Virus record (IMG/VR): IMGVR_UViG_3300001598_001658
Location: 32,001-96,000 of that record
Direction: 5' to 3' (one strand)
Length of the DNA stretch: 64,000 nucleotides
From: a virus
Taxonomy: Duplodnaviria; Caudoviricetes
The notes under the pieces were generated by a model. That model was given only the letters and a program-made list of their open reading frames with translations. It made no database searches and had not been told where the DNA came from. A program made the position numbers and the translations under genes. Shown in pieces: positions 1,815-5,538 of this stretch (its first letter is position 1; every line of letters begins with the position of its first letter).

Positions 1815-1920
1815 TATACTTACCTCCATATAAAATATTAGTACTAATACAATTATGTTTTTAAAAAACGTATTAAAAATTAAATACGAATGTACATTAT
1901 AATGGGATAGATGATACAAT

Positions 1921-2172
1921 CAATGGCCGAACATTAATTGATTGTTCATCACGCGCTGCCGGCTTCGGTACGCAGAAACTATACTTAGTTATCTGTGGTG
2001 TGACCGCAATTATTATTGTCCGTTGAGATTCCGACCTGCTGCTATAAGCGGCCATTGCCGGATGTTGGGCGTCTTATACCGACGGCGTTTAAGGAGATTC
2101 GTCTAGATAGTTGATGAGTAGAGTATATAGATACTTGTTGATCCTGAGACTATTTAAGCGAATGTTCGGCCA
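1921..2172 (+). ncRNA. putative ~250-nt structured ncRNA, family unknown
   Basis: GC-enriched with no credible ORF; 12-bp closing stem 1924-1935/2161-2172; internal helices contain G-U pairs, which favours the + strand. Confidence 0.6.
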
Positions 2173-2186
2173 CCTATTTGTTTTAT

Positions 2187-2251
2187 GTGAACCTGTGGAA
2201 CCCTATAAAAGGATTTTCCCCTCCCACCCGTCCTTTTATCCACAGGTTCAC
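2187..2251 (+). ncRNA. long hairpin with C-rich loop (putative sRNA)
   Basis: Stems GTGAACCTGTGGA/TCCACAGGTTCAC and ATAAAAGGA/TCCTTTTAT; loop TTTTCCCCTCCCACCCG. Confidence 0.45.
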
Positions 2252-2274
2252 TTTATATATTTTTTGGATATAAT

Positions 2275-2365: not shown

Positions 2366-2438
2366 GACTCTTTAGCTCAGTCGGTAGAGCAACGGACTGT
2401 TAATCCGTGTGTCGTTGGTTCAAACCCAACAAGGGTCG
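2366..2438 (+). tRNA. tRNA-Asn (GTT)
   Basis: Cloverleaf: acceptor GACTCTT/AAGGGTC, anticodon arm ACGGA-CTGTTAA-TCCGT, T arm GTTGG-TTCAAAC-CCAAC; no encoded CCA. Confidence 0.95.
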
Positions 2439-2657
2439 ATACTTTCCTCATTTAGTGGGGCACTGCTATTTGAGGGACGTGGGGTTACGCCGATTGTTAC
2501 CACGTACAAATACAAACAATTATGAGCTGTGACTCTCACTCAATTTTGATCATTTGGGGGTTAGAAGAGTCCGATCAAACTCATGACGCTGATACACGAT
2601 AGGTATTATATTTCTATATATTTTTTAGTATATAGAAATATCGGCACCACTTTATGT

Positions 2658-2730
2658 GGGCTTTTAGCTCAGTCGGTAGAGCAACGCCCTTTTAAGGCGT
2701 GGGTCAACAGTTCAAATCTGTTAAAGCTCA
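2658..2730 (+). tRNA. tRNA-Lys (TTT)
   Basis: Cloverleaf: acceptor GGGCTTT/AAAGCTC, anticodon arm ACGCC-CTTTTAA-GGCGT, T arm AACAG-TTCAAAT-CTGTT; no encoded CCA. Confidence 0.95.
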
Positions 2731-2777
2731 TAACTCTAGAATTACCTTCCCTTTTATTTTAGAGTGTCAAAGAACCT

Positions 2778-2877: not shown

Positions 2878-3156
2878 ATGAATAAAAAATTATTTACACT
2901 TTTATTAATCGGAATACTTGCAATTGTATCTGTTTCTGCATCAAGATCTTTGTGTTATTCTAGAAAATGTGACAAATGCGAATATAATGTTGCTCAAAGA
3001 GTTAATGGTGCTACAAGAACAATTGCATGGCGTGTATTTGAAATACCTCATAAAAAAATTGATGGTAAAATATATACAACTTATAGATGCGATCATGGTC
3101 ATGAATATCTTGTTAATATTGAAACAGGTGAACCTAGATTTCTGGAGAATAAATAA
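2878..3156 (+). CDS. small exported Cys/His-rich protein
   Basis: Signal peptide MNKKLFTLLLIGILAIVSVSA; CxxC and CxxxH motifs; AAGGAG RBS. Confidence 0.7.
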   Translation: MNKKLFTLLLIGILAIVSVSASRSLCYSRKCDKCEYNVAQRVNGATRTIAWRVFEIPHKKIDGKIYTTYRCDHGHEYLVNIETGEPRFLENK

Positions 3157-3353
3157 TGGAAGTAAAAATTAAGTTATTCAATAAAGAAGAAAAGATATAT
3201 AAAAATATCTGGGAAATTCAAAATTCACATGATGTTATCATCATCAAGAAACATTCGCATGAATGTGAACGATTTAACAAAGAAGATATTGAATATATCT
3301 TAATTGAAAGTGGGATTGTAAATAAATTATCTCATAAATCAGGAAAATTTTAA
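3156..3353 (+). CDS. hypothetical protein
   Basis: Overlapping TAATG coupling to the upstream gene. Confidence 0.6.
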   Translation: MEVKIKLFNKEEKIYKNIWEIQNSHDVIIIKKHSHECERFNKEDIEYILIESGIVNKLSHKSGKF

Positions 3354-3362
3354 GGAATAGAA

Positions 3363-3563
3363 ATGACACTCACAGAAGCACTTATGGATGTTGATATGAA
3401 TACTCATATTACAGTTATAGATACTGAACGCAAAAACTCAAAACGTGTAGTATCTATATTTGAATATATACAACCAGAATATAGTGACAATCATGAAGTT
3501 ATAGAAACTGAAAAAGGAATTCTTGAAATCAAATTTAGGGTTAGGAGCATTAAAAATGATTGA
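3363..3563 (+). CDS. hypothetical protein
   Basis: AAGGA RBS; fills the operon gap. Confidence 0.6.
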   Translation: MTLTEALMDVDMNTHITVIDTERKNSKRVVSIFEYIQPEYSDNHEVIETEKGILEIKFRVRSIKND

Positions 3564-5538
3564 AGATGAACTCGTCACTGATATGTGGAAACGAAGAATG
3601 AAAGAAACTCTTCAAATGGTGTATCATGGCGGATTAAAAGAAGATGTTTTGGATAAACTTCTCGATGCAGAAGTTCAGAAATCTTTAAATGAGGGAACTC
3701 GATATGCATATATGAGAGATATCTATAGAGATCGAGTTATTAAATTAGACCTCAATGAAATCATGAAATGGGTGTATGAAAAGAGACTCATTGTTGGAGC
3801 TAATGGAGCATATACATTTGCTCATGACGATGTGCTTGGAGATACATCAATTATGGTTATGGGAGACCTTGAAGCTCGTGCTAAAGAAAAAGCATTAGCA
3901 AAGGAATATGAAAAGAATAATCAATTGAAAGAAGCTACTCTTCATGATAACCTTCAGACAAAATATAAACAGGATACAAATAGTACTTATGGTATTGCTT
4001 GTATGCCTGGTTCTTTCTTATTCTCACCAGACTCAGCTACATTTATTACAACACAAGCTAGACAGCTCATTGCTGAAATGATGTGGTCGTTTGAAAGATT
4101 CTTAGTAAACAATCTTCAACTTCAGAATTATGGAGAAGCTCTTCTCTATATAAACAACTGTTTAAAAGAAGAAAGACATTGGGATCAATATAAAGAATGG
4201 ATTACTTATATACCTACAAAAGAAGATATAGGAAAATATCTTCTCTCTAAATTCACAGATATCGAAAATTTCAATATTAAGACAAAAGAAATTTCAAGAT
4301 CATTGTTTATTTTTATTGAAAGATTAAGTGAAGAAGAAAGAGTTTATTTGTATTATAAATTTAATTTCATTAATTTTATTGAGAAGAATCCTAAAGTGAT
4401 GGATCTTTTTAGACAGATTGCTGATGGTGAAGAAGCATTCCTGAATCCAAATAAAGTACCTGAAATTTACAAACCTATTTGTGATAAGCTTATCGAAGTA
4501 TCAAAAGAATTTTGTTATGGTGAATTCATGGTTACACATAGAGTTGATAAATATTTTGATTGTGAAAGAAAAGCAATTCTTCTTTCTGACACAGACTCTG
4601 TATTTATCATTCTTGGTAAAATCATGGATGTTATTTATGATAAGATTGGTTTGATTTATAAGTATCGAGATAATGATTTTAAACTTGTAAATGCACTTTG
4701 TACATTATGTACAAATTATATTGGAATGAGACACAATAAGTTTGTCGAAGCTTGTAATATTAAATATAAGTTTCCACAGTATAAACTTGATGCGAAAAAC
4801 GAATTCTACTATAAACGTGTTATTCTTTATACAGGTATTAAGAAAAATTATTCTGGTCTTAAGTTACTTCGTGAAGGAAATCTTGTTCCTCCAAAGAAAC
4901 AGATTTCTCACACAGGTATTAAACTTACAGGTTCAAGAATCCCAAAACAAGTTAGTGATTTCCAAACAAAAATTATAGAAGATAATATTTTAAGATCTAC
5001 GGTGGTTGATCCAGTTAAAATTATGTCTGATATAAATGCTGAAAGAGAAATCATTAAAGAAATTATCAAATCTGGTGATAAATCTATGGGTATTCCACAG
5101 AGATTCTCAGGTTATGATAAATACAAAGTTTTTGAATCGGCCCAGATTTGTAGACTTGTTGAAATTTGGAATCGAATTTATCCGGAACAGAAAATTGGTA
5201 ATGGTGAATATTTGATGACATTTGAAACTAAAGTTTATAATGAATCACAATTATATCTTATTCAAGATGTAGAAATGAGGGAGAAGATTCGAAAGGCTGT
5301 ATTTAGTGACAGATGGGATGGAGAAGATAACTTCTTGAAATCTCATGGACTTACAACAGTTGGTATTCCTAGAGATGGAGCAGTGACAGAGATTCCACAA
5401 TGGATGATTGATATTATCGATTATGATCTTATGGCGCGTAAACATCTTCAAGCAATCACCGATTTATTGCCATCATTGAATATGAATAAAGTTAAAACAA
5501 AAGACTTTAGTACATATTCATCATTATTAAGGATTTAA
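3556..5538 (+). CDS. family B DNA polymerase, catalytic subunit of a split jumbo-phage polymerase
   Basis: Motif B KQDTNSTYG, motif C LSDTDSVF, and KNE...KKNY; no exonuclease motifs seen; start ATG 3556 after AGGAG. Confidence 0.85.
   Translation: MIEDELVTDMWKRRMKETLQMVYHGGLKEDVLDKLLDAEVQKSLNEGTRYAYMRDIYRDRVIKLDLNEIMKWVYEKRLIVGANGAYTFAHDDVLGDTSIMVMGDLEARAKEKALAKEYEKNNQLKEATLHDNLQTKYKQDTNSTYGIACMPGSFLFSPDSATFITTQARQLIAEMMWSFERFLVNNLQLQNYGEALLYINNCLKEERHWDQYKEWITYIPTKEDIGKYLLSKFTDIENFNIKTKEISRSLFIFIERLSEEERVYLYYKFNFINFIEKNPKVMDLFRQIADGEEAFLNPNKVPEIYKPICDKLIEVSKEFCYGEFMVTHRVDKYFDCERKAILLSDTDSVFIILGKIMDVIYDKIGLIYKYRDNDFKLVNALCTLCTNYIGMRHNKFVEACNIKYKFPQYKLDAKNEFYYKRVILYTGIKKNYSGLKLLREGNLVPPKKQISHTGIKLTGSRIPKQVSDFQTKIIEDNILRSTVVDPVKIMSDINAEREIIKEIIKSGDKSMGIPQRFSGYDKYKVFESAQICRLVEIWNRIYPEQKIGNGEYLMTFETKVYNESQLYLIQDVEMREKIRKAVFSDRWDGEDNFLKSHGLTTVGIPRDGAVTEIPQWMIDIIDYDLMARKHLQAITDLLPSLNMNKVKTKDFSTYSSLLRI

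Follow-up and report, generated by a model that had tools for sequence, protein, structure and literature searches.

The window analyzed here, a stretch of 64,000 nucleotides, corresponds to bases 32001-96000 of a 145-kb IMG/VR virus record (G000) with a GC content of 30% and an estimated completeness of approximately half of the genome. It derives from a giant gut phage which encodes a divergent family B DNA polymerase (gene at 3523-5538), and homologues of this polymerase sharing 44-82% identity are present in gut and other metagenomes. No member of the phage clade or relative of the source phage was found in IMG/VR. Relatives were compared through their polymerase loci (L003-L023) and through a second relative genome, a 186-kb relative within MAG G001. 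Gene order is kept at the sister loci, with a 330-aa gene, a divergent ~155-aa gene, a gap and the polymerase. It is in this slot that a phage-type promoter, a structured RNA, a terminator and two tRNA genes are found in the window (Table 1).

Table 1. Features of the RNA locus and the adjoining tRNA genes (window coordinates).
Feature	Position	Strand	Basis
Promoter of the class [A/T]ACA-N6-T[A/G], with a TATAAT box at 1898-1903	1893-1904	+	Motif enrichment, conserved position
5' terminal hairpin, 14 bp with one bulge, 12-nt loop at 1925-1936	1910-1950	+	Energy, folding along the transcript
Hub segment with three exclusive perfect partners, includes GCCGAA at 1926-1931	1916-1935	+	Complementarity, shuffles
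Two adjacent GC-rich hairpins, 1957-1970 (GCUU loop) and 1971-1997	1957-1997	+	Pair probabilities 0.8-0.99
Central irregular hairpin domain holding the predicted transient partner 2049-2057	2020-2094	+	Ensemble folding
Long 3' hairpin domain, ~26 bp with interruptions	2097-2163	+	MFE and centroid folds
3' strand of the closing helix (2161-2172), then A-C-C tail	2161-2174	+	p 0.96-1.0; sequence read directly
Terminator, 13+9-bp hairpin (2187-2251) with C-rich loop, then U-rich run	2187-2267	+	Fold of 1904-2275; sequence
Second -10-like box ahead of the tRNA genes	2269-2274	+	Sequence
tRNA-Asn (GTT), downstream in the same island	2366-2438	+	Rfam, ARAGORN
tRNA-Lys (TTT); island ends at terminator 2778-2803	2657-2731	+	Rfam, ARAGORN

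A Probable Non-Coding Transcription Unit Ahead of the tRNA Genes

Bases 1901-2199 form a GC island (0.51, where the genome averages 0.30 with sd 0.06). Few GC islands in this genome lie, like this one, outside long ORFs. The short ORFs inside the RNA have GC3 values of 0.38-0.53, compared with 0.10-0.21 in real genes, and are not preceded by ribosome-binding sites, and a protein-coding reading was rejected on these grounds. A replication origin or primer was also considered and rejected, as the cumulative GC skew has no inflection at the locus. The core of the RNA spans ~1910-2174 (about 250-270 nt), while the primary transcript is predicted to run from ~1904 to ~2265. In this genome, the promoter class to which the upstream element belongs is 3-6 fold overrepresented at distances of 20-60 nt before start codons, and the element itself occurs at the same position in six sister phages (L008, L009, L016, L020, L021, and L023). 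The late-promoter variant named in the preliminary description of this DNA is present and positionally conserved, and we infer that transcription starts at ~1904-1911. The related motif AACA-N6-TA is found on the minus strand at 1859-1848 and at many intergenic sites, and is enriched genome-wide 20-60 nt upstream of start codons; it is similar to late promoters of giant phages with a multisubunit RNA polymerase of their own.

The RNA had been described as heading the tRNA transcript, and this holds in that it opens the tRNA region and follows a phage-type promoter. It does not hold in the stricter sense, given that the terminator and the second -10-like box both separate the RNA from tRNA-Asn, which argues for a separate unit and not simply a tRNA leader. 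Overall, the region looks, from its sequence, like a separate structured non-coding RNA with its own transcription unit. The terminator hairpin has a 15-nt C-rich loop, unusual in a C-poor genome. The 218-nt spacer between tRNA-Asn and tRNA-Lys (2439-2656) is also GC-rich (0.38-0.44) and non-coding, and matches neither Rfam nor the covariance model R1 of a sister-phage RNA (see the last section). A second tRNA cluster (Leu, Met, Gln) lies outside the window on the minus strand of G000 (121990-123900; locus L042) and is followed by ~850 nt of GC-rich non-coding sequence which ends at a terminator; Rfam detects only tRNAs there.

Three Exclusive Pairings of the 5' Segment

A direct check of the sequence established that the reverse complement of 1924-1935 is found without mismatch at 2161-2172, and that of 1921-1929 at 2049-2057. 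Both of the long-range complementarities initially proposed for the 5' end are thus exact to the base. A third perfect pairing, absent from that proposal, joins 1916-1924 to 1937-1945 and forms the core of the 14-bp 5' hairpin (-14.4 kcal/mol), the 12-nt loop of which is exactly the 5' strand of the long-range closing helix. All three perfect pairings converge on one 20-nt segment (1916-1935, hereafter the hub segment) and are mutually exclusive. The sequence of the 5' end accordingly allows competing pairings, with 1937-1945, 2049-2057, and 2161-2172 as the partners.

Pairings of this kind are rare in randomized sequence. An inverted repeat of at least 12 nt was seen in 0 of 2000 shuffles of the RNA, and one segment with two distant 9-mer partners in 0 of 3000, while any 9-mer inverted repeat is found in 9% of shuffles. 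Inverted repeats of at least 12 nt are present in 34 of the 544 tiles of the genome, mostly in AT-rich sequence or terminators. Other self-closing, GC-containing inverted repeats were found at seven loci in G000 and four in the 186-kb relative, none of which resembles the window RNA.

Predicted Fold and Co-transcriptional Behavior

All folding states, energies, and probabilities reported here come from nearest-neighbor thermodynamic calculation. The minimum free energy (MFE) of the plus strand is -84.6 kcal/mol, with z = -3.4 relative to shuffled sequences, compared with z = -2.0 for the minus strand. In both the MFE structure and the ensemble, the overall fold is a four-branch junction closed by a terminal helix. 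The internal helices that had been proposed by eye fared unevenly. The hairpin at 1957-1970 is strongly predicted (p ~0.98), 2020-2025/2080-2085 (p ~0.2) and 2030-2035/2064-2069 (p ~0.35) are minor alternatives, and 1985-1995/2104-2114 has a probability of 0 because both of its arms prefer local hairpins.

At full length, the state with the closing helix (-85.9 kcal/mol) and the state with the 5' hairpin (-83.4 kcal/mol) are nearly equal in energy, and the 2049-2057 pairing (-78.0 kcal/mol) costs 7.5-8 kcal/mol. The predicted order of events changes as the transcript grows. The 5' hairpin dominates up to a transcript end of ~2015 (p 0.74), the 2049-2057 pairing takes over at ~2060 (p 0.88) and falls below 0.02 afterwards, the 5' hairpin is again dominant for transcript ends at 2100-2170, and the closing helix prevails once 2172 has been transcribed, reaching p 0.96-1.0 at full length. 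In these calculations the pairing of 1921-1929 with 2049-2057 is a transient co-transcriptional state only. The registers of the three partners on the hub segment are staggered (1916-1924, then 1921-1929, then 1924-1935), so that a newcomer strand can start on bases that its predecessor leaves free, as in toehold strand displacement. As an end state, pairing of the 5' hairpin loop with the 3' tail in a pseudoknot is also sterically possible. When drawn as a minihelix, the terminal stem places U1924 at position -1 and G1925 as the first paired base of an 11-bp helix that extends to C2171 and is followed by A2172-C-C. This is the form recognized by RNase P, RNase Z, and CCA-type enzymes, and the stem may thus be a putative mimic of a tRNA end.

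Searches for Known Families and Homologues

At gathering thresholds, Rfam identifies only the two tRNAs at the locus. Relaxing the threshold to E ≤ 10, with 1.2 kb of the region or a 286-nt query, gave nothing relevant, with no 6S, tmRNA, RNase P, SRP, Y_RNA, YrlA, riboswitch, or T-box match. The Rfam scan proposed at the outset (6S, large SRP, and phage motifs) thus gives no relevant match even at E ≤ 10. ARAGORN found no tmRNA and no extra tRNA at the RNA. The results of both programs fit an unclassified phage ncRNA, as originally assigned, and show no tmRNA, RNase P, SRP, or 6S signature.

Sequence homologues were sought at several levels. A blastn search against INPHARED phages returned only tRNA matches, and megablast of 12 kb returned nothing. 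Three exact or gapped patterns searched in IMG/VR yielded one chance match, in a high-GC phage. No sequence homologue of the window RNA was detected by blastn in 17 sister loci or by BLAST of the two MAGs that hold relatives, and no paralogue was found within the 145-kb record.

The one comparative signal comes from L008, a phage with 77% polymerase identity. Here the promoter is present a second time and is followed by an RNA of 125 nt (3913-4047; z = -4.05). This RNA shares with the window RNA the promoter, its own transcription unit, and a leader that is ~65% identical over the first 55 nt. It also has a 5' hairpin that encloses the 5' strand of a closing helix, here 8-11 bp and followed by A-C. 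However, it is only half as long, its internal domains do not align with those of the window RNA, and the recognizable likeness in sequence is that of the leader. The recurrence of the same design with a different sequence is suggestive, and these two sequences are the sole comparative support for the pairings.

A Hypervariable Slot in Sister Phages

Among phages with 70-82% polymerase identity, the content of the gap beside the promoter is hypervariable and includes ORFs, Y-like arrays, tRNA-like RNAs, or nothing, and the most distant relatives have no gap. A signal-peptide ORF occupies it in L003 and L005, and other structured RNAs do so in L007, L008, L009, L012, and L019. In L016, L020, L021, and L023 the same promoter is followed by an ncRNA of 290-560 nt and then by a 495-aa DUF2828+vWA protein. 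The Y-like arrays begin with a conserved 5' hairpin at the same position as that of the window RNA. In L021, the Rfam YrlA model matches 2187-2319 over its full length with 29 bits (E = 3e-4), short of the gathering threshold, and a tRNA-like match of 33.5 bits overlaps this hit.

A predicted model of the DUF2828+vWA protein (pLDDT 71) was compared with the PDB, and its top 13 matches are all Ro60/TROVE proteins with full-length alignments and E-values of 3e-8 to 2e-4, the best being 9l5y (E = 3e-8). These include Ro60 of Thermus phage phiLo, Rsr of D. radiodurans, and frog and human Ro60. On the evidence of this model, the protein has a Ro60/TROVE ring fold that was previously unrecognized. 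The combination of a Ro60-fold protein and a YrlA-like match indicates that the slot in L016, L020, L021, and L023 therefore holds a Ro60-like/Y-RNA-like module. In the 145-kb record, which is approximately half of the genome, no TROVE protein, DUF2828-type Ro60, match to profile A5, or RtcB was found, and no DUF2828-type Ro60 gene was found in MAG G001, which holds the 186-kb relative. The Ro60-like gene is accessory in this clade.

The DUF2828+vWA genes lie at 2593-4080 in L021, ~2989-4476 in L020, and 778-2268 in L016. The family is very common, with more than 4000 homologues, many of which are labeled Treponema, and the phage copies sit among tRNA genes. A motif, ACAGCRA, is present in 2-5 copies within ~600 nt upstream of DUF2828 genes, including those of unrelated IMG/VR phages, where ~0.05 per locus is expected by chance. 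Sites were located at 215-745 in L016, 2030-2580 in L021, and 2700-2960 in L020, and upstream of the DUF2828 genes of L026, L029, L030, and L033. The modules are repeated, and in each a short helix closes a loop that starts with the motif and is followed by CUUGU. They may represent an uncatalogued RNA partner of the Ro60-like protein.

Comparison With Known RNAs

Bacterial Y RNAs carry a motif near the 5' end, GNCGAAN0-1G (Chen et al. 2014, PMC4201824), and the CGAA motif was used to find the Y-like RNAs of phage phiLo, RNAs that form assemblies with host PNPase (PMC12135203). The animal counterpart of the motif is GGUCCGA, set in a bulged helix. In the window RNA, GCCGAA lies in the 5' strand at 1926-1931; the trailing G and the bulge are absent, and GNCGAA is expected by chance ~0.1 times per 270 nt. 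Like Y RNA and YrlA (RF02553; phiLo Yrl1/Yrl2), the partners of Ro60/Rsr, the window RNA joins its 5' and 3' ends in a terminal stem, which is a 12-bp perfect helix here, and like the phage Y RNAs it is phage-encoded and lies beside tRNA genes. It differs from them in the absence of a Ro60-like gene from the 145-kb record (approximately half of the genome), in the absence of a tRNA-like D/T domain, in its size (~250 nt vs. 80-130 nt), and in a perfect stem without a bulge. Neither RF02553 nor RF00019 matches the window RNA at E ≤ 10, while the positive control, L021, gives YrlA at 29 bits. The ACAGCRA motif has zero copies in 1800-2900 of the window, in contrast to the 2-5 copies upstream of each DUF2828 gene. 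Human Y1 RNA may share a 13-nt stretch with 1937-1949, to which we give no weight.

In the co-transcriptional rearrangement of E. coli SRP RNA and the 5'-3' fold-back of hok mRNA, an early 5' hairpin that is not part of the native fold gives way to a distal 3' strand, which creates a long-range closing helix. The window RNA is alike in this predicted hairpin displacement, but is unrelated in sequence and has neither SRP domain IV nor a toxin reading frame. The stable RNAs species 1 and 2 of phage T4 are small RNAs of unknown function in a tRNA cluster, with tRNA-like processed ends. By description, they can be likened to the window RNA as small phage RNAs encoded with tRNAs.

Possible Function and Alternative Explanations

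We favor the view, at a probability of roughly 35%, that the locus encodes a stable trans-acting RNA which folds through a co-transcriptional strand-displacement relay and perhaps serves as a Y-RNA-like or tRNA-end-like protein-binding scaffold. Transcription would proceed from the promoter of phage RNA polymerase type and end at the RNA's own hairpin terminator. The 5' segment (1916-1935) would first pair inside the 5' hairpin, then briefly with 2049-2057, and finally with the 3' end at 2161-2172, each new partner initially binding bases left unpaired by the previous one in a toehold-style exchange, as the folding model predicts. The end state would be either an 11-12-bp closing helix or a pseudoknot of hairpin loop and 3' tail; either would hide both termini and close the four-branch junction.

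In RNA and tRNA surveillance, the RNA would then play the part of a trans-acting scaffold or decoy that binds protein. The features that point this way are the terminal stem with a GCCGAA that recalls the CGAA-type motif of bacterial and phage Y RNAs, a stem end resembling the minihelix bound by RNase P and the CCA enzyme, and the position of the RNA, which fills the exact slot that holds Y-RNA-like arrays and a Ro60-like gene in sister phages. For this phage, either the host or the half of the genome that has not been sequenced would have to supply the partner protein. A Y-RNA or tRNA-end type of protein scaffold thus appears the most likely function, with low confidence, and we do not class the RNA as a Y RNA. 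A bolder version is improbable, namely that this is a new class of self-locking phage ncRNAs in which a three-step relay brings the 5' end to the 3' tail, and that it acts as a Y-RNA analogue which, having no Ro60 gene of its own, captures the Ro60-like (DUF2828) ring or the tRNA-end enzymes of the host and thereby redirects host RNA decay or blunts tRNA-targeting defenses.

The alternatives differ in what they make of the same features. If the element were a cis-acting leader or conformational switch, the 5' pairings would decide read-through of the hairpin at 2187-2251 into the tRNA genes, and the three exclusive pairings, the terminator directly downstream and the tRNA genes next on the same strand would all be in keeping with this. 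However, no alternative partner overlaps the terminator stem and no antiterminator can consequently be drawn, the terminator is followed, ahead of tRNA-Asn, by a second -10 box, Rfam yields neither a riboswitch nor a T-box, and the closing helix dominates at full length (p > 0.96), all of which make a cis-acting role unlikely. The conformational switch that was initially suggested is not supported in a riboswitch form, given that the alternative pairings do not touch the terminator, and a folding relay fits better. The other initial suggestion, a long rod acting as a 6S-like RNA polymerase decoy, is not supported either, since the fold is a junction of several branches that lacks a central bubble, and Rfam gives no match. 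More broadly, we consider it highly unlikely that the RNA is a 6S-like decoy or a divergent tmRNA, RNase P RNA, or SRP RNA. Its 5'-3' closing helix and its size, roughly that of bacterial 6S or SRP RNA, recall these classes, and the terminal closing stem and broad size range are indeed shared with 6S RNA (RF00013), but the 286-nt query matches no Rfam model at the gathering threshold or at E ≤ 10, ARAGORN reports no tmRNA, the junction is branched where 6S is a bubble-bearing rod, and no T-arm, tag reading frame, P4 motif, or SRP domain IV motif is present.

The locus could also be a recombination hot spot carrying a cassette that is selfish or in decay. The structure would then be a leftover, for example of a former Y-RNA/Ro60 module, with no present function, a reading that would account for the hypervariability of the slot among phages with 70-82% polymerase identity and for the RNA being a singleton. 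We regard this as doubtful, since a neutral stretch of 270 nt at 50% GC with three perfect pairings on one segment would be expected to decay fast against a genomic GC of 30%, neither promoter nor terminator is disrupted, and L008 keeps the same design with a different sequence. An antisense RNA or sponge acting in trans, with loops that pair with phage or host RNAs such as mRNAs or tRNA fragments, would suit an independent transcription unit and a stable fold that protects from nucleases, and the C-rich loop of the neighboring hairpin looks anti-Shine-Dalgarno-like. Against this, complementarity within the 145-kb record does not exceed chance (best 12-13 nt, E ~0.5-2), and such a role is distinctly unlikely.

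Phage ncRNAs are few and mostly unexplained. Whichever function applies, a hub segment with three exclusive partners offers a compact natural system for studying co-transcriptional strand displacement, and in this clade of giant gut phages the locus forms a rapidly evolving island of RNA cassettes. The Y-like arrays and the predicted Ro60-fold protein in the slot of sister phages point to a struggle over the surveillance of RNA and tRNA, with different phages possibly drawing on different RNAs. Should the protein-binding decoy prove true, the Y-RNA concept would be widened; otherwise, the locus is still a well-delimited orphan RNA gene.

Other Structured RNAs in Related Phages

In eight sister phages (L003 4069-4400, L004 379-745, L005, L016, L017, L020, L021, and L023), tRNA-Asn carries at its 3' end a fused structured RNA of ~300 nt. 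Compensatory changes are seen in 7 of the 13 pairs of the first two helices of this RNA (model R1, eight sequences). Rfam has no match for it, and it does not occur in the window. Model R1 finds nothing at 1900-2200 with default filters and at most 0.5 bits with filters off, and on this basis an apparent likeness of 1950-1985 (a CUUCGG-type hairpin, then CAGAAA) to the fused RNA was rejected. In L008 (3642-3750) and L009 (4322-4418) there are tRNA-like RNAs with normal acceptor, D, and T arms, in which a long insert replaces the anticodon arm; the one in L009 is annotated by ARAGORN as a tRNA whose anticodon has four bases. Finally, in the unrelated IMG/VR phages L029 and L030, a group I intron match of 44.9 bits, just below the gathering threshold, lies at 3025-3210, directly downstream of the DUF2828 gene.
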